From Dehalococcoidia bacterium (GTDB lineage: Bacteria > Chloroflexota > Dehalococcoidia > Lucifugimonadales > UBA3495), in assembly GCA_022825745.1 (NCBI GenBank), contig JAJDWF010000085.1, positions 1,783 to 65,782 on the forward strand: a stretch of DNA of 64,000 nucleotides, written 5' to 3'. A program made the position numbers and the translations under genes. Shown here piece by piece: positions 3,411 to 14,289 of this stretch; position 1 is the stretch's first letter; each line of letters begins with the position of its first letter. Below the pieces are notes generated by a model. The model was not told where the DNA came from. It ran no database searches and saw only the letters and a program-made list of their open reading frames with translations.

Positions 3411-4334
3411 CTACACGTTGCGCAGTTTGGGGTCCAGCCGGTCGCGCAGCCAGTCGCCCAGCAGGTTCATGGACAGCACCGTGAGCACGATGGCCATCGT
3501 GGGGAAGAAGAACAACCACCAGGCGGTGACGATCAACGCCCGCCCATCGGCCACCATCAGGCCCCAGGCCGGCGTCGGTTTAACGAGGCCGGCGCCCAGG
3601 AAGCTCAACGTGGACTCAAGGATGATGACGTGGCCAACCTCCAGGGTGGCGAGCACTACCACGGTGTTGACGACATTGGGGAAGATGTGGCGCATCATGA
3701 TGCGGACTGGCGACGCGCCGGCGACCTGGGCGCGGGCGATGAAGTCCTGCTGCTTGATGGCCAGGGCCTCGCCGCGGACCATGCGGGCGAATCTTGCCCA
3801 CAGGAGCAGCGCGATGACCAGCACCACCGTCTGGAACCCCGGCCCGCTCACCGCCACCAGCACCAATGCCAGCAGGATGGACGGGAACGCCAACTTGATG
3901 TCCACGATCCGCATTATCAGGTTGTCAACCCAGCCTCCGCCGTAGGCCGCCAGCAGGCCCAGCACCGTGCCGACACCCCCGCCCAGCGCGATGGCCAGCA
4001 GCGAAATGGAGAGGGAGATCCGCGCGCCGTGGATGATGCGGCTGAGGATGTCGAATCCCTGTCGGTCGGTGCCCAGCACGTATTGCCAACTGCCACCCTC
4101 CATCCAGGCCGGAGGCATCAGGCGATCGCGCAGGTTGACGTCCACGGGATCATGGGGCGCGATGAGGTTGGCAAAAAGCGCCGGGATAATCAGCATCACC
4201 AGCAGGATGATCAATGGGATGATCGGGTACTGGCGGACGTGGAAAACCACCTGCCCGAACTTGCCGCGCCTGGGGAATGCGCCGGCGTCGGCAGTTGGCT
4301 CGGCGGCGACCGGAGTTGCTGTTGGGGTGGTCAT
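3411..4334 (-). CDS. ABC transporter permease, peptide/nickel type (DppC/OppC-like)
   Basis: 307 aa, multi-TM, with the EAA-loop region ([21 protein letters not shown]). AAGGAA RBS upstream of the ATG. Confidence 0.9.
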
Positions 4335-4402: not shown

Positions 4403-5323
4403 CTAGTAGCGAATCCGGGGATTCAGGTAAGCGTACATCACGTCAACCAGCAGGTTGATGAAGATGTAGCACGCAGCGAACAGGATGACGATGCTCTGGA
4501 TGACCGGGAAATCCCGGTTGCGAATCGCGTCAATGGCAAGGTCGCCCAGGCCGGGCCAGACGAACACCGTCTCGATGACCACGGAACCCGTGAGCAGCAC
4601 CGCCCCAATGAGTCCCATGTAGGTGAACGGGACGATCAGAGCGTTGCGGAAACAGTGCTTCCAGATGACCTTCCACTCCGGCATGCCCTTGATGCGGGCC
4701 AGCTTGACGTACTCCGTGTCCAGCACTTCCAGCATCGAGGAGCGGGTGAGGCGCATCACTGCGGCGACGTTATAGTAGCCGAGGGCGACGCCGGGGAGGA
4801 TGATGGACTTGAAGCCGTCGTCGTTGCCCGAGGTGGGCAGCCAGCCTAAGATCACCGCGAATACCCACATGAGTATCAGCCCGATGGCAAAGGACGGCGC
4901 CGACTGTCCAATCAGGGCCACAACTTTTCCGGCCCAGTCAAAGGCGGAGTCTTTTTTGACCGCCACCATGACGCCGATTGGCAAGGCGATCGCCGCGCTG
5001 ACAATCCAGGCGAAAGCAGCGAGCATTACTGTGTTGGGCAGGCGGCTGGCAATCAACTCGGTGATGGGAACGCCGCCGTAGGCCCAGGCCTCGCCGAAAT
5101 CACCCGTGACGAAGTTGCCGATGTAGCGGGCGTACTGGATATAAATCGGCTGGTCCAGGCCCCACTTCTCCCGGACCTGCTCAACAACGGTGTCAGGAGC
5201 GTCCTCGGGCAGGAGGATGGCCACCGGGTCGCCGGTGACCCGCGCCAGCGCGAATACTACTGCGCTGATGACCAGAATCGCTACGATGGACTGAATCACC
5301 CGCAGAAAGATGAAACGCTGCAT
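4403..5323 (-). CDS. ABC transporter permease, peptide/nickel type (DppB/OppB-like)
   Basis: 306 aa. N-terminus (MQRFIFLRVIQSIVAILVIS) and motif YVKLARIKGMPEWKVIWKHCFRNAL are typical of DppB/OppB. Confidence 0.9.
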   Translation of the reverse strand: MQRFIFLRVIQSIVAILVISAVVFALARVTGDPVAILLPEDAPDTVVEQVREKWGLDQPIYIQYARYIGNFVTGDFGEAWAYGGVPITELIASRLPNTVMLAAFAWIVSAAIALPIGVMVAVKKDSAFDWAGKVVALIGQSAPSFAIGLILMWVFAVILGWLPTSGNDDGFKSIILPGVALGYYNVAAVMRLTRSSMLEVLDTEYVKLARIKGMPEWKVIWKHCFRNALIVPFTYMGLIGAVLLTGSVVIETVFVWPGLGDLAIDAIRNRDFPVIQSIVILFAACYIFINLLVDVMYAYLNPRIRY

Positions 5324-7471: not shown

Positions 7472-8398
7472 TCACTCGTCACGGCCGGCAATGCTCCCCG
7501 GATAGAACTTCAGCCAGGCCGAGCGGTAGGCGATCATCGTAGGCAGTTCCCGGCCGCCGTCGGTTGTCCTCGCCCTTATCGCCCCCGTCCCGGCATCCCG
7601 CCACACGGCAACCGGAGTATCACCAACGACGCCGGCAACCTCGCCGTCAATCACACTATCGTACGGCCACGCCGCGGCCGAGTCGCCAATCACCACACCC
7701 ACCACGTGGTTCGCGCCCGGTCGGTTGCCCCGAAACGCCGGGGAAGGTTCGCTCACCACCAGCGCCGTAGTCTCCGGGTGCGACGCTGCCCATTTGCCCC
7801 AGGTGGTGAGTTGCGACGGAACCAGCGGCAGCGTCGCGCCGGCCTCCGTGCCGGTGAGCGCCATGCCCAGGGGCTGCGACCAAATGCTGCCGGTCGCGTG
7901 GTCGAACCACGTCATGGCTCCTTTGTACAGCGCGCCCTGGTTTCCGAACACGGCCGCAGTTCCGTTGACGCGCCTCTCATGCACCAACGCGGCGTAGCAT
8001 CGCGGACACCAACTGACCAGCACGGGAACGCCGCCCACCACGTCGTTCACCAGTTCACGGGAGAACAGGATGCCCGTCGGGTAAGCGCGGGCGTCGCCGT
8101 TGATGGACAGCCCGATTACTAATTCGTCGTGGGGCAGGTCGGCGTCCGCTGCCGGTACGAACCGGGGCGCGTAGATCGGCGGTATGTCGTCGGGCAGCAG
8201 CAGTTGCACAAGTTCGGCGTCGGAGAACCCCGCCGCGGCCGGCCCTCGCGGGCCAATCGTCTCGTCGTATGCGCCGGCAAATTCCCCGGCGTAGCCGGCC
8301 GGCGACGGCGGTTCGGACGCGCTGCATCCGCCCACGGCGGACAGCAGGATGGCGGCCGCTGTGATGACGATGAGAACCGGCAAAGCCCGGTCAGTCAC
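7472..8398 (-). CDS. DUF3179 domain-containing lipoprotein
   Basis: Matches the DUF3179 signature (ARAYP..IL...E.VND.VGG.PV.VSWCPRC....V..R.V.G....FG..G.LY......D..TGS.WSQ). Lipobox VGGC. The GTG start overlaps the znuB-like stop by 8 nt. Confidence 0.8.
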   Translation of the reverse strand: MTDRALPVLIVITAAAILLSAVGGCSASEPPSPAGYAGEFAGAYDETIGPRGPAAAGFSDAELVQLLLPDDIPPIYAPRFVPAADADLPHDELVIGLSINGDARAYPTGILFSRELVNDVVGGVPVLVSWCPRCYAALVHERRVNGTAAVFGNQGALYKGAMTWFDHATGSIWSQPLGMALTGTEAGATLPLVPSQLTTWGKWAASHPETTALVVSEPSPAFRGNRPGANHVVGVVIGDSAAAWPYDSVIDGEVAGVVGDTPVAVWRDAGTGAIRARTTDGGRELPTMIAYRSAWLKFYPGSIAGRDE

Positions 8399-9266
8399 CC
8401 GCCGCGACCGTTTCGGGTTGCGGTTGGCGGTGCCGCAGGCGGGAGAACAGGGCCCAACGCCGCGGAGACGCCACCACTGTAATCAGGAGCATGGCTACCG
8501 ACACCACGACTATGGCCGGGCCGGTGGGCAGGTCGAGGTGGAACGACAGGTACAGCCCGATTACGATGGCGGCCAGGGCGACGCCCACGGTAGCAAACAT
8601 CATGCTGGCCAGGCGACGCGCCAGCAGGCTGCCCGTTACCGCCGGCACCACCAGCAGCGACATCACCATCACGTTGCCCACGGTTTTCAGCGCGGCTACC
8701 GTGGTCAACGCCACCAGCAGCGGCAGCAGGTACTCTAGGAAGCGTACCGGCAGGCCCGACGCTTCCGCGACGGCGGAGTCATACGTGGTGAAAACCAGCT
8801 CTTTGTAGAGCAGCCACACCACCAGGACCACGCCGCCGGCCAACAGCCCCACCGACAGCACGTCGGTCCACGAGGCCCCCAGCACATTGCCGAACAGGAT
8901 GCTGAGCAAATCGCCGGCGTAATTTTCGCTTGCGTTGATCAGGATTACGCCAACCGCAAAGCCGCCGGCGAAGAGCACGCCTATCACCGCGTCCAGTCGG
9001 ATTCCGGCCCGTCTGGATACCAGCGAAATGCCCAGCGATGCCGGCACCGCCCAGATTAGCGCGCCCAGGAATATGTTTGCCCCGAACAGGAACGCCACCG
9101 CCATTCCGGTCAGGGCTGAGTGCGCTATCGCGTCTCCCAGGAACGCCATGCCCCGCAGTACCACGAACGTGCCCACCACTCCGCAGGCGGTCGCGGCCAG
9201 GGCCGACACCAGCAGCGCGCGCTGCATGAAACCGTACTGCATGGGTTCGATAATCAGGTCGAGCAT
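8391..9266 (-). CDS. znuB: Metal ABC transporter permease (ABC-3 family, ZnuB-like)
   Basis: 291 aa, about 8 TM segments. Motifs are typical of ZnuB/MntB permeases (FMQRALL, GDAIAHSALTG, LLVVPAVTG). Confidence 0.8.
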   Translation of the reverse strand: MLDLIIEPMQYGFMQRALLVSALAATACGVVGTFVVLRGMAFLGDAIAHSALTGMAVAFLFGANIFLGALIWAVPASLGISLVSRRAGIRLDAVIGVLFAGGFAVGVILINASENYAGDLLSILFGNVLGASWTDVLSVGLLAGGVVLVVWLLYKELVFTTYDSAVAEASGLPVRFLEYLLPLLVALTTVAALKTVGNVMVMSLLVVPAVTGSLLARRLASMMFATVGVALAAIVIGLYLSFHLDLPTGPAIVVVSVAMLLITVVASPRRWALFSRLRHRQPQPETVAAGD

Positions 9267-9273
9267 GGTTTAT

Positions 9274-9873
9274 TTATTGGAGGCGTAAGCGCATCGCAAC
9301 GGGCTGGATGACGCCGCAGGCGACCGGCGAGTCGGCGATTTCGCGCTCGCCGTGGCCCTGCGGGCCGGCGTGGATTATGACAGATGAACCGTCCTCGTCA
9401 AATAGCGAGTGCGGCTTGCCGGCCTGCAACGTGAGGCCGTCGGTGACGAAATCGGCGCGTGCCGAGCCGTCGGCGTGGGCGTAGATGTTGGGCAGGTCGC
9501 CGCTGTGAAAGCCGTAAACCTCACCCCGTTTCCAGTTCGGATGCACAAACCCGCGTCGCGTTTCGCGAGGCGAAAAATGGCCGCCGGCCGCGCTGAAGTC
9601 GGGAGTGCATGCCCCCACGGCGTGAACGATTACCGCATGCCCGCCCGGCGTCAGACCTTCCACGTCCACCGCAAACAACAGGTGCTCGGCGCTTTCATGC
9701 AGCGTTACCGTTCCCAGGGCATCCCCGGACGGAGACATCATTACGGCCTCGGCAATTAATTCCTCATCCGACACCGCCGGCTGGCCGGAGCGCAACGCTA
9801 TCCAGACCAGTCCGGCGATAACCGCGACCGCGATGACGATGATCAGTAAAGCTGGTTGTGCCCTCATCCTCAT
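9274..9873 (-). CDS. Cu/Zn superoxide dismutase-like (SodC family) protein, membrane-anchored, with a degenerate Cu site
   Basis: Contains the SodC motifs LTPGGHAVIVHAVGAC, AAGGHFSP, FHSGDLPN, VIIHAG and VACGVIQ. An N-terminal TM helix is present. The first Cu-ligand His is replaced by Ile, and the Arg three residues before the C-terminal Cys is replaced by Pro. Confidence 0.8.
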   Translation of the reverse strand: MRMRAQPALLIIVIAVAVIAGLVWIALRSGQPAVSDEELIAEAVMMSPSGDALGTVTLHESAEHLLFAVDVEGLTPGGHAVIVHAVGACTPDFSAAGGHFSPRETRRGFVHPNWKRGEVYGFHSGDLPNIYAHADGSARADFVTDGLTLQAGKPHSLFDEDGSSVIIHAGPQGHGEREIADSPVACGVIQPVAMRLRLQ

Positions 9874-9921: not shown

Positions 9922-12312
9922 TTATTGGAGCAATTGCGCCAGTGCGTCGGCGTTGGCGCGCATCATGCTGATGTAGTCGGGATGGTCAGCGTCCGGCAGA
10001 GACCGGACGTTCCCCACCGGAATGCCGGCGTCCCGGGCTACCTGGTCCAGGGCATCCTGCGAAAACTGGGGCTCAGCGAAAACGCCGGGCAGTCCCCGGT
10101 CGCCCACCAGGTCCAGCACGCGCACGATGTCGTCGGGCGACACGGCGCCGGCGTGGCTGCCGACGAAGGCCATCACTTCCATGTCGTAACGGGTCCCGAA
10201 GTAGCCGAAAGCGTCGTGGAAGGTAACCATCACCCGGTGGTCCTGCGGAATGCCGGCCAGCGCGTCGGCGATGTAGGCATCCAGCGCCTCCAGCTCGGCG
10301 ATGTAGGCGGCGGCGTTGTCCAGGTACACGCCGGCGTTGTCCGGGTCGGCGGCGACCAAGCCGGTGGCAATCTGGTTGACGTAGTGAACCACCAGGCGCG
10401 GATTGAGCCAGAAATGCGGGTCGCCTTCGCCGTGTTCATGGCCGTGTTCGTCGTGGCCCTCTTCGGGGTGGTCGCCTTCATCCAGAATCCCTACGAAAGC
10501 GATTTTCGTCGGGGTGCCGTCAACGTCCCAGTGTTCCACCACTTCCAGGTCGTGCGGGTCCAGGGCAAGTACCTCTCCGGCGCCGGAGTCGGTGATGAAA
10601 ATGAGGCCGGGAGCGGTGGCGATGTGGGGCCGCGCCCAGAATCCCGGATCAATGTCGTCGGACAAAACCTCATTCGTCGAGGCCAGCAAGTCGGCGTCAT
10701 GGCCGTCGTACAATCGGATTTCGCCGTCGCTCATGACCACGATGAGATATTCGCCATCGTAGCTGAACGCTACCTGTATCGGCCGCAGGGCGTCGGTGGC
10801 GGCGATGAACTGCTCCATCTCGCCCTCTTCGGGTTCCACGATGTACAGGCCGACAGCCGAACCCAGGGCAAGGAAATGGTCCAGGCCCTCATAGCCCCAA
10901 ACGGAGGTCAACCGGAAGTCGTCCGGGGACCCGTCCGGGGCGGCGATGAATTCGTCGTGGTATTCGCCGTCGTGGGCTTCAACCACCAGGACGCCGCCGG
11001 TGCAGCCGAACACGGCCATGTGACCGTTGCTGGCGTCGCCGTGCAGGTCCGGGCAGCCTTCCGCGGAGTGCAGCACGTTGCCGTCCAGGTCGCGGATTTC
11101 CGCGCCGATGGGTCGCCTGTATTCCGTCGGGTTTTGCAGATAATTCGGGTGTTGGATTGAAACCGCGAACAGGTCGCCTTCCAGGGGAACCGCCGCGCCG
11201 TGCTGGGCGCCGACGTTCATCATCACGGGCGCGAAGTCATCGCCCTCGTGTTCCAGTTCATGCTCGTTGATCAGCGCGATGTCGCCGGAACCGTCATAGA
11301 AGATCGTCGCCCATTCACCGCCCACGTACAGATGCACGGGCCGGTCTCCGCTGAGGTCGGTGGGCAGGCGGTGCACGTGTGCCTCCACCAGGTCGAAGTG
11401 GTCTCCGTGCTCTTCCAGGTAGATTCCGCCGTCAAAGATGTGCGCGGTGTTGGCGTCCGAGGACACGGCGATGGCGTAACGCCCGGATCCGCTGGGGTAG
11501 ATGCGGCCGGCTCGCGAACCCAGGTCAAATTCGTCCTGGTGGACCTCGCCGGACTCCAGGTCGATCACCGACAAAGCTCCGGTCTCCCCGTCTCCAACCA
11601 GGAGGCGGCCCATGGCCTCGCCTTCATGTCCTTCTCCTTCCATCGCCTCTTCGCCGTGGCCGTGGCCATCTTCGGGGAAGGGCAGTTCCACCAGTTCCTG
11701 CGGTTCCAGCCCTTCCGATGCGATGACCATGACGGCGTCCGCAGACGCGGCGTTGTCGATCAATTCTTCCACCTGCGCGGACAGGCCACCGCCGTTGCTG
11801 ACGATCACCGTCGCTTCCGAGATGCGGACGCTGTCCTGCGGAGTGCTGTTCCAGGTGTGCGCGTCGCTCCCGATGGGAACTAGGCTATGCACCGAAACGC
11901 GGTCTCCACCCACCTGGGCCACCAGGTCCGCCAGCAGGGCGTTGCCGGCGATCACGTCGATGGGTTCGGCTTCCGGTTGAGCCATCTGCCCCGAGCCGCT
12001 CTGTCCTGACCCGGTCTGCCCCGAAGCCGTCTGCCCGGAGGCTGTCTGTCCCGAGGCTTGGCTGGCCGACGCCTGGCCCGCGTTCGACGACGCGGGAGCG
12101 CTGGTCGCGGACGGGCTGGACGCGGCGCTGGCGGGCGCCGAACCTGCGGGGGCGGACGATTCGGCCGGAGGGAGCGCCGACTCGTCGCCACCGCAGGCGG
12201 TCAAGAAGAGCGCGGCTGCCAGCATGGCGCCGAAAAAGGTCGCCAGCAGCAGCCGGCGGGCCGGCGCGGACGATCTGGCAGCAGCGGAAAGAGGGTTGGA
12301 CCGGTTGTTCAT
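9922..12312 (-). CDS. znuA: Zn/Mn-family metal ABC substrate-binding lipoprotein (ZnuA/AztC-like) with a large beta-propeller insertion in the His-rich loop
   Basis: N-lobe (IDVIAGNALLADLV...SLVP.GSDAHTW) and C-lobe (DPHFWLNP...TFHDAFGYF...EPQFS) of a cluster A-I SBP are split by about 400 aa flanked by His-rich runs. Probable ATG at 12312 (GGAG 9 nt upstream). Lipobox LTAC-GG. Confidence 0.8.
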   Translation of the reverse strand: MNNRSNPLSAAARSSAPARRLLLATFFGAMLAAALFLTACGGDESALPPAESSAPAGSAPASAASSPSATSAPASSNAGQASASQASGQTASGQTASGQTGSGQSGSGQMAQPEAEPIDVIAGNALLADLVAQVGGDRVSVHSLVPIGSDAHTWNSTPQDSVRISEATVIVSNGGGLSAQVEELIDNAASADAVMVIASEGLEPQELVELPFPEDGHGHGEEAMEGEGHEGEAMGRLLVGDGETGALSVIDLESGEVHQDEFDLGSRAGRIYPSGSGRYAIAVSSDANTAHIFDGGIYLEEHGDHFDLVEAHVHRLPTDLSGDRPVHLYVGGEWATIFYDGSGDIALINEHELEHEGDDFAPVMMNVGAQHGAAVPLEGDLFAVSIQHPNYLQNPTEYRRPIGAEIRDLDGNVLHSAEGCPDLHGDASNGHMAVFGCTGGVLVVEAHDGEYHDEFIAAPDGSPDDFRLTSVWGYEGLDHFLALGSAVGLYIVEPEEGEMEQFIAATDALRPIQVAFSYDGEYLIVVMSDGEIRLYDGHDADLLASTNEVLSDDIDPGFWARPHIATAPGLIFITDSGAGEVLALDPHDLEVVEHWDVDGTPTKIAFVGILDEGDHPEEGHDEHGHEHGEGDPHFWLNPRLVVHYVNQIATGLVAADPDNAGVYLDNAAAYIAELEALDAYIADALAGIPQDHRVMVTFHDAFGYFGTRYDMEVMAFVGSHAGAVSPDDIVRVLDLVGDRGLPGVFAEPQFSQDALDQVARDAGIPVGNVRSLPDADHPDYISMMRANADALAQLLQ

Positions 12313-12354
12313 TGTGTTTGACTCCATGGATGCAAAATTGCGTCCTGCTATCAA

Positions 12355-12442: not shown

Positions 12443-12907
12443 TCAGTCAGCGCACTCGCCGCAGCGGCCGTAAACTTCCAGCCAATGCCCGCTCATGCGA
12501 AAGCCGGACCGGTCGGCGGCGGCGCGAAGTATGTCCTCGACGTCACAGTCTATCAGGTCGGCGGACGCGCCGCATATGGCGCAGAGCATGTGATGATGAT
12601 GGCCCTGGTGGCTCAACTGGTAACGGAGTTCCCGGTCTTCCAGCAGCACCCGGCATACCTGGTCGGTTTCCACCAGCAAGCGAAGCCCTCGATACACCGT
12701 GGCCCGGCCAACGCAGGGCAGTGCGGCGCACAGATCCTCAGCCGTAAAGGGACGTCCCTGGGCCGCGACGGCGCTGATGACCAGGCGCCGGGGCTCAGTA
12801 TCCCGGTAACCCTGCCTGGCCAACTGGGCAACTATGTCGTCCACCACGGCAGAGGAGATCGGGGCGGGATGGTCGTGACCTCTGTGTTTGAAATTAGTGG
12901 CAACCAA
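12443..12907 (-). CDS. zur: Fur-family transcriptional regulator (probably Zur)
   Basis: 154 aa. Winged-helix region (GRATVYRGLRLL), an HHHH run, and two CxxC pairs (CAIC, CGEC). It lies directly upstream of the zinc-uptake genes. Confidence 0.8.
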   Translation of the reverse strand: MVATNFKHRGHDHPAPISSAVVDDIVAQLARQGYRDTEPRRLVISAVAAQGRPFTAEDLCAALPCVGRATVYRGLRLLVETDQVCRVLLEDRELRYQLSHQGHHHHMLCAICGASADLIDCDVEDILRAAADRSGFRMSGHWLEVYGRCGECAD

Positions 12908-13011: not shown

Positions 13012-14289
13012 CTAATCGTCGGCAGCAATGAACAGGTGCTCGACGTGGTGGTTTTCCTGCTCGCAGTCGGATGCGGAACCCTCCAGTTGCAGGGTCAGGT
13101 GCGTCAGGCCGAAATTCTTGGCGATACTCCGCAATCGCACCAGCAATTCGTCCTTGTCCGGCACGGCCGCGTGATCAATCAGCACGTGGGCGGTGAACGC
13201 GTTGTACCCGGAAGTGATGGTCCAGGCATGCACGTCGTGCACCAGCGTTACCCCGGGTACGTCCTCCATGTCGCTGCACAGCTGGATGATGTCCACGTTT
13301 TTCGGCGTCCCTTCCAGCAGCACCTTGAACACGCTCATGAACAGGCCCCACGACACCTTGAGAATCAGCAGGCCGATCAGGATGCTCAGGATGGGGTCCA
13401 CAATCGTCCAGTTGAAGTCCGGCGCGAACCGGGGACCGAATACGATCAGCGCCCCGGAGAGGATCACGCCCACGGAACCGAACAGGTCGGCCATGACGTG
13501 CTGGAACGCCCCCTCCACGTTCAGACTTTCCCCGGCGGCGCGATGCAGCACATACGCCGCGGCAATGTTCACCAGCAGGCCCGCGATCCCGACGCCGAAC
13601 AGCAATGGCCCTTCAATATGCGGGGGGTCAAAGAAACGGTGATAAGCCTCGAAGAAGATCCAGCCCGCAATCAGCCACAGGCTCAGCGTGTTCACCAGGG
13701 CGGCCAGCACCTCGGTTCGATGAAAACCGAACGTGGAACCGGCGGACGCGGGTCGGGCGGACAGCCACATGGCAAAAAGCGCCAGCACGATGGCCGCAGC
13801 GTCCGTGAGCATGTGCGCCGCGTCGGCCAGCAGGGCCAGGCTGCCGGACAGGATCCCGCCCACCACTTCAACAAACATGAACGTCCCAATCAGGGACAGG
13901 GCGATGATCAGGCTGCGTTTGCTGGCGCTCCGCAAGTCGTGGGCATGGTCGTGGTCGTGCCCGGAGTGATCATGCCCGGAGTGATCGTGTCCCTCATGGC
14001 CGTGCCCGGCATGGTCGTGCTCATCGTGGTCATGCCCGGAATGGTCGTGTTCCTCATGGCCATGCGCGGCGTGGCCGTGCCCCGAGTGATCGTGTTCCTC
14101 ATGGCCGTGGCCGGAATGGTCATGCCCGGAGTGATCGTGCTCAGCGTGATCGTGCTCAGCGTGATCGTGCCCAGCATGGTCATGCTCATCGTGGCCGGCG
14201 TGGCCGTGCTCATCGTGGTCATGCTCGGCATGATCGTGCCCCGCATGTTCCTCATGATGGCCGTGTTCGTGCGAGTGTGGCGTGGTCAA
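13012..14289 (-). CDS. Cation diffusion facilitator (CzcD/ZitB-type) exporter with ~118-aa His/Asp/Glu-rich N-terminal extension
   Basis: CDF motifs SLALLADAAHMLTD (TM2) and HVMADLFGS (TM5), plus a C-terminal cytoplasmic domain. TTG start with AAGGAAG RBS. Confidence 0.9.
   Translation of the reverse strand: MTTPHSHEHGHHEEHAGHDHAEHDHDEHGHAGHDEHDHAGHDHAEHDHAEHDHSGHDHSGHGHEEHDHSGHGHAAHGHEEHDHSGHDHDEHDHAGHGHEGHDHSGHDHSGHDHDHAHDLRSASKRSLIIALSLIGTFMFVEVVGGILSGSLALLADAAHMLTDAAAIVLALFAMWLSARPASAGSTFGFHRTEVLAALVNTLSLWLIAGWIFFEAYHRFFDPPHIEGPLLFGVGIAGLLVNIAAAYVLHRAAGESLNVEGAFQHVMADLFGSVGVILSGALIVFGPRFAPDFNWTIVDPILSILIGLLILKVSWGLFMSVFKVLLEGTPKNVDIIQLCSDMEDVPGVTLVHDVHAWTITSGYNAFTAHVLIDHAAVPDKDELLVRLRSIAKNFGLTHLTLQLEGSASDCEQENHHVEHLFIAADD

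Follow-up and report, generated by a model that had tools for sequence, protein, structure and literature searches.

A gene on the minus strand of a 64,000-nucleotide stretch of DNA from a marine Dehalococcoidia bacterium (assembly GCA_022825745.1, contig JAJDWF010000085.1; the whole stretch is hereafter the window) encodes a 796-aa lipoprotein in which one zinc-handling protein is nested within another. Judged by sequence and predicted structure, a complete AztD-type beta-propeller interrupts the histidine-rich D-loop of an AztC-like cluster A-I zinc substrate-binding protein (SBP). The domains are known, their nested arrangement is undescribed, and it is common in a single phylum, the Chloroflexota. 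We consider it likely that the product is a surface-anchored zinc-capture protein with chaperone and client on one polypeptide, and equally likely that it works by tethered hand-off of zinc from site 2 of its AztD domain to its own SBP site. A first-pass annotation of this DNA, made from the letters alone, had flagged 10420-11670 as a propeller inserted into a ZnuA-type protein; this interval corresponds to open reading frame (ORF) residues 229-645 and takes in the insert with both of its His-rich linkers.

An AztC-like protein split in two

The gene lies in an unbroken ORF (9922-12354, minus strand) that has 810 codons when read from a TTG at 12354 and encodes 796 aa when read from an ATG at 12312. 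The ATG is the likely biological start and the upstream TTG an alternative, because homologues begin 'MN...' in our alignment and a database protein of 796 aa (P0001) is identical. Residue numbers below refer to the 796-aa protein, except for 'ORF' residues, which count along the 810-codon frame. The features of the gene are as follows, all on the minus strand:

9922-12312: whole gene, 796-aa lipoprotein (AztC-like zinc SBP with nested AztD); single ORF, stop codon at 9922-9924
12190-12312: signal peptide and lipobox (…LFLTAC, Cys40), the Cys nearly invariant in homologues
11971-12189: low-complexity Ser/Ala/Gly/Gln tether of ~70 aa between lipid anchor and folded part, assigned from sequence
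11692-11970: N-terminal part of the SBP, residues 115-207, with the first zinc ligand His152 (SDAHTW); aligns to Paracoccus denitrificans (Pd) AztC 18-114
11620-11691: linker 1, the His/Glu-rich N-side remnant of the D-loop (…EDGHGHGEEAMEGEGHEG); predicted local distance difference test (pLDDT) score below 50 in both models
10477-11619: AztD-type beta-propeller, residues 232-612, from sequence and fold matches and conservation
10426-10476: linker 2, the C-side of the D-loop (GDHPEEGHDEHGHEHGE), containing His615; pLDDT below 50 in both models
9925-10425: remaining SBP, residues 630-796, with DPHFW including His633, the backbone helix, and the C-lobe with His699 (TFHDAF); aligns to PdAztC 119-292

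The first-pass annotation had described a ZnuA-type lipoprotein of 796 aa broken at about residues 228 and 645. The single ORF and its two ZnuA stretches agree with this, the two numbers being positions in the 810-codon frame, and every peptide that it quoted is present in the translation (HGHGEE..EGHEGE, RLLVGDGETGALSVIDLESGE, GRYAIAVSSDANTAHIFDGG, IYLEEHGDHFDL, GEYLIVVMSDGEIRLYDG, GLIFITDSGAGEVLALD, HPEEGHDEHGHEHGEGD and DPHFWLNP). The Pfam ZnuA model (PF01297) matched the protein in two separate stretches, scoring 241 bits where the cut-off is 29. In ORF numbering these stretches are ~123-220, the N-terminal piece being placed by AztC alignments, and 627-807. When the regions flanking the insert were compared with the PDB, the best match was AztC of P. 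denitrificans (5kzj, 5w56, 6xpn; E ~1e-36), with ORF residues 123-220 aligning to AztC 18-114 and 641-808 to AztC 119-292. AztC was the best match of the SBP part in both PDB and NCBIfam, ahead of ZnuA. The zinc ligands of the SBP are His152 (SDAH), His633 (at the position of Pd His138) and His699 (at the position of Pd His204). We searched the 64-kb window for a second AztD or SBP copy and found none.

The insert is an AztD-type propeller

We compared the ~380-aa insert alone with the PDB using phmmer. It matched AztD from Citrobacter koseri (6cmk, E 1.3e-26) and P. denitrificans (6ck1, E 3.5e-26), and the alignment spanned AztD residues ~25-417, that is, to the C-terminus. The next match after the two AztD proteins was the YncE propeller, at an E-value of 0.005. 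The NCBIfam AztD model (NF038015) aligned over positions 1-354 of its 356, with a score of 124.5 bits.

Structure prediction pointed the same way. We built two AlphaFold2 models of the full protein, one from 60 homologues (pLDDT 85.6, predicted template modelling (pTM) score 0.59) and one from 99 diverse sequences (pLDDT 91.1, pTM 0.65), and each contained two confident modules with pLDDT above 90. In a Foldseek search of the PDB with the first model, the top nine matches were AztD chains (E 1e-26 to 1e-28, target template modelling (TM) score 0.83-0.86, root-mean-square deviation ~3 Å), followed by AztC chains (5w57, target TM 0.83). The modelled propeller has 33 strands, consistent with eight blades. 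A generic WD40, YVTN or PQQ propeller was considered and rejected: the Pfam WD40 matches were sub-threshold, propellers other than AztD reached a TM of ~0.5, and YncE was as distant as noted above.

AztD of Paracoccus binds zinc at site 1 through His124, His167 and His218 and at site 2 through His99, His102, Asp104 and His408, with Gly100; it has a disulfide between Cys214 and Cys231 (PMC6689063). By residue count along the alignment, His99, Gly100, His102, Asp104, His124, His167, Cys214, His218 and Cys231 (Paracoccus numbering) are all identical in the insert. The corresponding residues of the window protein are:

Site 2: H302, G303, H305 and D307, in the motif HGDHFD
Site 1 (pore): H327, H371 and H424, aligning to Pd His124, His167 and His218
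Cysteine pair: C420 and C437, aligning to Pd Cys214-Cys231; disulfide predicted
Probable counterpart of His408: H615, in linker 2, seven residues past the last strand

The C-terminal histidine is the least conserved AztD ligand, at 68% (PMC6689063), and the alignment makes His615 its probable counterpart. The proposal of the first-pass annotation that the insert resembles AztD is thus borne out end to end, by sequence matches, profile coverage, fold, and all seven zinc ligands with the cysteine pair. By analogy with AztD, the insert would bind zinc and transfer it to a cluster A-I SBP.

The ligands are conserved across the family. In a set of 99 nested homologues (29-83% identity), the SBP residues His152, His633 and His699, site-2 H302 and H305, site-1 H327, and C420 and C437 were invariant, and site-1 H371 and H424 were each kept in all but one. 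The position of the site-2 Asp307 holds Asp in 62 of the 99 and His in 36. The His615 position was His in 42, and nearly invariantly so within the window protein's own clade. Mean pairwise identity was 0.79 for the insert, compared with 0.71 and 0.78 for the two SBP parts; the insert is under the same constraint as its host. In the few tether columns covered by the alignment, mean pairwise identity was 0.20, and pLDDT was low for the residues next to them, with which the model begins.

The propeller occupies the middle of the D-loop

The D-loop of AztC (residues 117-133) is a flexible segment of ~17 residues between '…GVETME' and 'AGAHDPHAW', and its histidines are needed for AztC to receive zinc from AztD (PMC7463823; PMC6689063). 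In the window protein the order is '…GLEPQE-LVELPFPEDGHGHGEEAMEGEGHEGEAMG-[propeller]-ILDEGDHPEEGHDEHGHEHGEG-DPHFW', and therefore the propeller takes the place of the D-loop middle, leaving a His/Glu-rich remnant on each side. Across the family, linker 1 is 16-27 aa long with a median of 4 His and linker 2 is 12-35 aa long with a median of 7 His; in the window protein 18 residues separate His615 from His633. The two linkers, each of ~20 residues and rich in His, Asp and Glu, are the only places inside the chain where pLDDT drops below 50 in both AlphaFold2 models. Their low pLDDT, the pTM of 0.59-0.65 and the confidence of the modules themselves together fit a flexible tether. The predicted protein is thus a propeller module held on disordered linkers from the His-rich loop of the SBP.

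The first-pass annotation had placed the insertion in the His-rich loop and had also spoken of an inter-lobe position. The loop assignment stands. The inter-lobe description does not strictly hold: in the structure, the DPH histidine that follows the insert is still part of the metal site's N-terminal half, which puts the insertion point in the His-rich loop where the cleft opens.

The nested design is widespread in Chloroflexota

An assembly of an independent read set contained an identical protein with the same gene order. When one genome per species was scanned, at least 80 full-length nested loci (52-79% identity) were recovered from ~60 Dehalococcoidia, SAR202 and Chloroflexota genomes, many of them closed chromosomes of 3-4.7 Mb (OZ242042 is a closed Dehalococcoidia example). 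Nested proteins of a second, divergent group share ~30% identity with the window protein; one member comes from a complete, isolate-derived genome, that of Aggregatilineales bacterium SYSU G02658 (CP146238.1), where the nested gene is followed by an ABC (ATP-binding cassette) ATPase and then an ABC-3 permease. On these grounds, and since the ORF is single, an assembly artefact or an interrupted ORF was rejected.

We also searched 1.84 billion cluster representatives with the insert using HMMER, which returned 690 AztD-like clusters at E <= 1e-3. Among the best 150 of those proteins there were 119 near-full-length AztD instances, and 14 of these, from 13 proteins, stood in the order SBP N-part, AztD, SBP C-part. 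These 13 nested representatives clustered independently, and in every one of them the insertion is in the same loop. The named sources of nested proteins are all Chloroflexota; many metagenomic members lack an established taxonomy. Two or three paralogous copies occur in 18 of the ~60 genomes, among the loci listed.

The architecture is therefore not rare, contrary to one sense of the first-pass claim that it is unusual. In the other sense the claim holds: a full-text literature search, which did not cover the original 2015 and 2017 JBC papers, turned up no account of a nested AztC-AztD protein, and of the ~40 papers that mention AztD none also names Chloroflexota. By sequence, the nested design is widespread in Chloroflexota, and it has gone unannotated for want of a Pfam model that matches and because the scores stay below the NCBIfam cut-offs. 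Public annotations call such proteins merely 'zinc ABC transporter substrate-binding protein' or 'ZnuA', and hundreds carry the former label alone, an annotation gap.

Other insertions and fusions of AztD

The same loop holds further arrangements in relatives. One protein (P0143, 1216 aa) has two nearly identical AztD domains in it, and about ten clusters (886-939 aa; for example P0193, P0301, P0316 and P0347) have ZinT followed by AztD. For P0347 (L084, 8001-10679), the precomputed Pfam order is ZnuA-ZinT-ZnuA, and the gene adjoins cobW/COG0523 genes. A Pfam scan of the window protein gave no ZinT match (PF09223).

AztD domains also occur in other settings. A 2432-aa eukaryotic protein of Diplonema papillatum (P0164, KAJ9458053.1), named 'KE4/ZIP-like histidine-rich membrane protein', contains at least four AztD repeats. 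Two bacterial proteins (P0139 and P0148) combine TIGR03769 surface-anchor repeats with AztD, at up to 70% identity to the window insert. The closest standalone AztDs are P0141 (MDE0031013.1; Deltaproteobacteria metagenome-assembled genomes) at 58% and P0144 at 52% identity to the insert. The AztD of other nested clades is further from the insert than either of them, a pattern suggestive of fission or horizontal transfer. In a neighbour-joining tree of AztD domains, too crude for counting insertions and fissions, the nested proteins fell into at least two groups intermixed with standalone forms.

A tentative generalisation, which we would put at somewhat less than an even chance, is that the D-loop of Chloroflexota zinc SBPs serves as a modular socket for whole zinc-chaperone domains, turning them into single-chain relays. 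Zinc might then pass along a histidine ladder formed by site 2, linker 2 and the three-His site, with hinge motion replacing dissociation, and the repeated loss or replacement of the AztC ligand Asp279 could be a consequence of the tether. If this were true, these proteins would form a distinct, undescribed mechanism class of high-affinity metal uptake and would amount to a naturally trapped AztD-AztC transfer complex.

A probable tethered hand-off of zinc

Zinc leaves AztD solely from site 2, to AztC; site 2 lies on an extension formed by the N- and C-terminal strands, which run side by side; and the two proteins separate once zinc is transferred (PMC6689063). Because the two ends of AztD are adjacent, the domain can be inserted into a loop without strain, and because those ends carry site 2, insertion puts site 2 within one short linker of His633. 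The most likely function of the nested protein is hand-off within the chain. Beyond the holding of site 2 next to the cleft, we infer the following course. The His-rich linkers and the propeller sites would collect scarce Zn(II). Site 2 (His302, His305 and Asp307, with a linker His such as His615) would then pass zinc to the three-His SBP site, in a first-order, intramolecular step that would take the place of the slow bimolecular docking limiting the Paracoccus transfer. The propeller would swing away on its linkers, and the zinc-loaded SBP would feed an AztB-type permease. Expression would probably be induced by zinc shortage via the adjacent Fur-family repressor, acting on repeated TTGATAC boxes. 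The zinc context is supported by ZinT in the loop of relatives, by their cobW neighbours, and by a ZitB-like CDF exporter and SodC near the window gene.

Several points weigh against this reading. The metal, stoichiometry and transfer direction of the nested members are ones that we infer. In the published docking model, the intact D-loop threads into the propeller pore (PMC6689063); here the loop is interrupted by the propeller itself and cannot thread as docked, and therefore the geometry of transfer may differ. A 380-aa domain at the cleft mouth could hinder docking to the permease, and AlphaFold gave no confident interdomain pose, as the pTM values reflect. Asp279 of AztC is proposed to complete transfer and trigger release (PMC6689063), and in the window clade its position is deleted (VGN---VRSL) with no conserved acidic residue; release by dissociation is in any case impossible in a single chain. 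The profile scores also fall short of their curated cut-offs. The AztD score of the insert lies below the 400 bits set for NF038015, and automatic pipelines will not name the insert because this is an 'exception'-type model tuned to close relatives. The AztC model (NF040870) scored 188.7 bits against 350, partly because the insert splits the match, and the AztB model scored 210 bits for the neighbouring permease against 280. Finally, a search of ORFs in the 64-kb window for Walker-A and signature motifs found no ABC ATPase.

An alternative is that the propeller acts as a zinc store or buffer, or as a chaperone in trans for other copies, paralogous SBPs or secreted zinc enzymes such as the neighbouring SodC, with the tether doing nothing but anchor it at the surface and its own SBP site receiving no zinc from it. 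Site 1 in the pore has high affinity and no known transfer role yet is conserved, and storage or tuning has been suggested for it (PMC6689063). Genomes with two or three paralogues exist, many Fur-fusion pairs lack an adjoining permease, sodC stands within the operon, and the AlphaFold models have no fixed interdomain interface. Such a module could be attached anywhere, for instance at a terminus as in AdcA, yet every one of the 13 nested representatives uses the very loop that AztC needs for receiving zinc, and the ends so joined bear the transfer-competent site 2. We therefore regard storage or action in trans as unlikely, and tethered hand-off as the better account.

It is more improbable still that the cargo is another metal (Mn, Fe, Ni, Co or Cu), for which the AztD-fold domain would have been re-purposed. 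The regulator can be assigned only to the Fur family and not specifically to Zur, Mn and Fe are among the metals that cluster A-I SBPs carry, the window protein gives good scores with several Mn SBPs, and the fourth SBP ligand is variable. An all-His site is typical of zinc SBPs, and the sites of Mn and Fe SBPs are usually His2-Glu-Asp; the third SBP ligand is His (TFHDAF) in 99 of 99 homologues, completing an all-His site. All AztD zinc ligands are retained as well, relatives co-insert ZinT and adjoin cobW/COG0523 genes, and the ZitB-like CDF exporter is adjacent. That the gene is an assembly chimera or a pseudogene, or that the propeller is a generic one without a part in metal trafficking, might be suggested by the uncultured source and by the weak WD40-like matches that are all Pfam gives in the insert. 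This reading is effectively refuted by the independent assembly, the at least 80 full-length loci with closed chromosomes among them, the complete genome in another class, the SBP-like constraint on the insert and its invariant AztD-specific ligands.

Comparison with known systems

We compared the nested protein with three known systems, using for AztABCD the structures of AztC (5W56, 5W57) and of AztD from P. denitrificans (6CK1) and C. koseri (6CMK). The window protein shares with Paracoccus AztABCD modules homologous to AztC and AztD, the three-His SBP core, sites 1 and 2 and the cysteine pair. Both are extracytoplasmic, have an AztB-type permease and a nearby Fur-family regulator, and offer a His-rich D-loop as the contact point. 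In Paracoccus, however, AztD is the product of a neighbouring gene, whereas here it lies inside the D-loop of a single chain that permits neither free bimolecular docking nor dissociation after transfer. The window protein further differs in being lipid-anchored via a long low-complexity tether, its local operon in having no ATPase gene, and its clade in lacking the Asp279 ligand. At that position (residues ~765-775; 9925-10010 region), a clade at 50-57% identity has Gly (LYTGSLG) and an Anaerolineae-type clade has Asp (LYTDALG) or His (LFTHGLG).

Streptococcus AdcA (PDB 7JJ9), in which a ZnuA-like domain is joined end-to-end by an 11-residue linker to a C-terminal ZinT, is the closest precedent for a chaperone-SBP fusion, being likewise a lipoprotein zinc SBP linked covalently to an accessory zinc-recruiting domain (PMC7858048). 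Unlike the nested AztD propeller, the accessory domain of AdcA is a ZinT lipocalin and leaves the His-rich loop intact. By sequence, the window protein may work like AdcA in principle and is not an AdcA-type member. The ZnuA-ZinT complex has been discussed as a template for the docking model of AztC and AztD (PMC6689063). There too an accessory zinc binder engages the His-rich loop of the SBP near the metal cleft, but the Gram-negative partners are separate, non-covalently associated proteins, with a different accessory fold and an intact loop.

Direct protein-to-protein transfer of zinc outside the cytoplasm is poorly understood; AztD-AztC is its best kinetic model, and the complex is transient and represented by docking only. 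A natural single chain provides independent evolutionary evidence that it is at the D-loop face of the SBP that AztD acts, its site 2 lying beside the cleft. It also offers a stable construct for determining transfer geometry by crystallography, cryo-electron microscopy or small-angle X-ray scattering, and for comparing kinetics in cis and in trans. Multiple copies of an elaborate zinc scavenger are an investment made here by abundant marine and sponge-associated Chloroflexota (SAR202/Dehalococcoidia), and this bears on trace-metal ecology.

Genomic context and regulation

On the minus strand, the genes run in the order CDF exporter, Fur-family regulator, fusion gene, sodC, aztB-like permease, DUF3179 gene, Opp/Nik-type SBP and two permeases. 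The neighbouring features are:

13012-14289, minus strand: ZitB-like CDF exporter just upstream of the regulator, with an N-terminal tail of ~110 aa made almost entirely of His/Asp/Glu repeats
12443-12907, minus strand: Fur-family regulator (candidate Zur) directly upstream of the fusion gene; PF01475, 68 bits
12349-12398: a pair of operator-like boxes of the form ATTGATAC-N4/5-TATC(AA) that overlap a promoter-like site immediately upstream of the fusion gene
9274-9873, minus strand: secreted Cu/Zn superoxide dismutase (SodC), 48 bp downstream of the fusion gene, from family matches
8391-9266, minus strand: AztB-like ABC-3 metal permease; PF00950, 230 bits, best NCBIfam match AztB
7472-8398, minus strand: DUF3179 lipoprotein with a WCPRC motif, from Pfam; translationally coupled to aztB, the end of which its start overlaps, with conserved synteny
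3411-4334 and 4403-5323: BPD_transp_1 permeases (Opp/Nik-type, with SBP_bac_5)

The regulator and the fusion gene are adjacent in nearly all of the 80 related loci. The spacer between them in the window is 130 bp long and holds both boxes. No 8-mer was more enriched than ATTGATAC in the equivalent spacers of related loci (L001-L080): 33 of 43 spacers contain it, as a rule in 2-5 copies ~30 bp apart. This pattern fits repression by the adjacent Fur-family regulator, which probably binds the boxes and by its context would sense zinc. Paralogous Fur-fusion loci were also seen (for example L012/L022, L008/L025 and L036/L039/L040), the extra copies often without an adjoining permease.

Two operon layouts recur among the relatives:

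Window's clade: Fur-fusion-(sodC)-aztB-DUF3179-SBP5, no ATPase in the operon
Clade at 50-57% identity: Fur-fusion-ATPase-aztB, ATPase in the operon

The window encodes two ABC importer membrane systems, the metal ABC-3 and the Opp/Nik-type one, and neither has an ATPase within the 64 kb. A subset of related loci has sodC at the same position, and SodC could be a client for extracytoplasmic zinc. Lists of prokaryotic selenoprotein families include DUF3179, a hint that the lipoprotein encoded here has a redox function, perhaps on the propeller disulfide.

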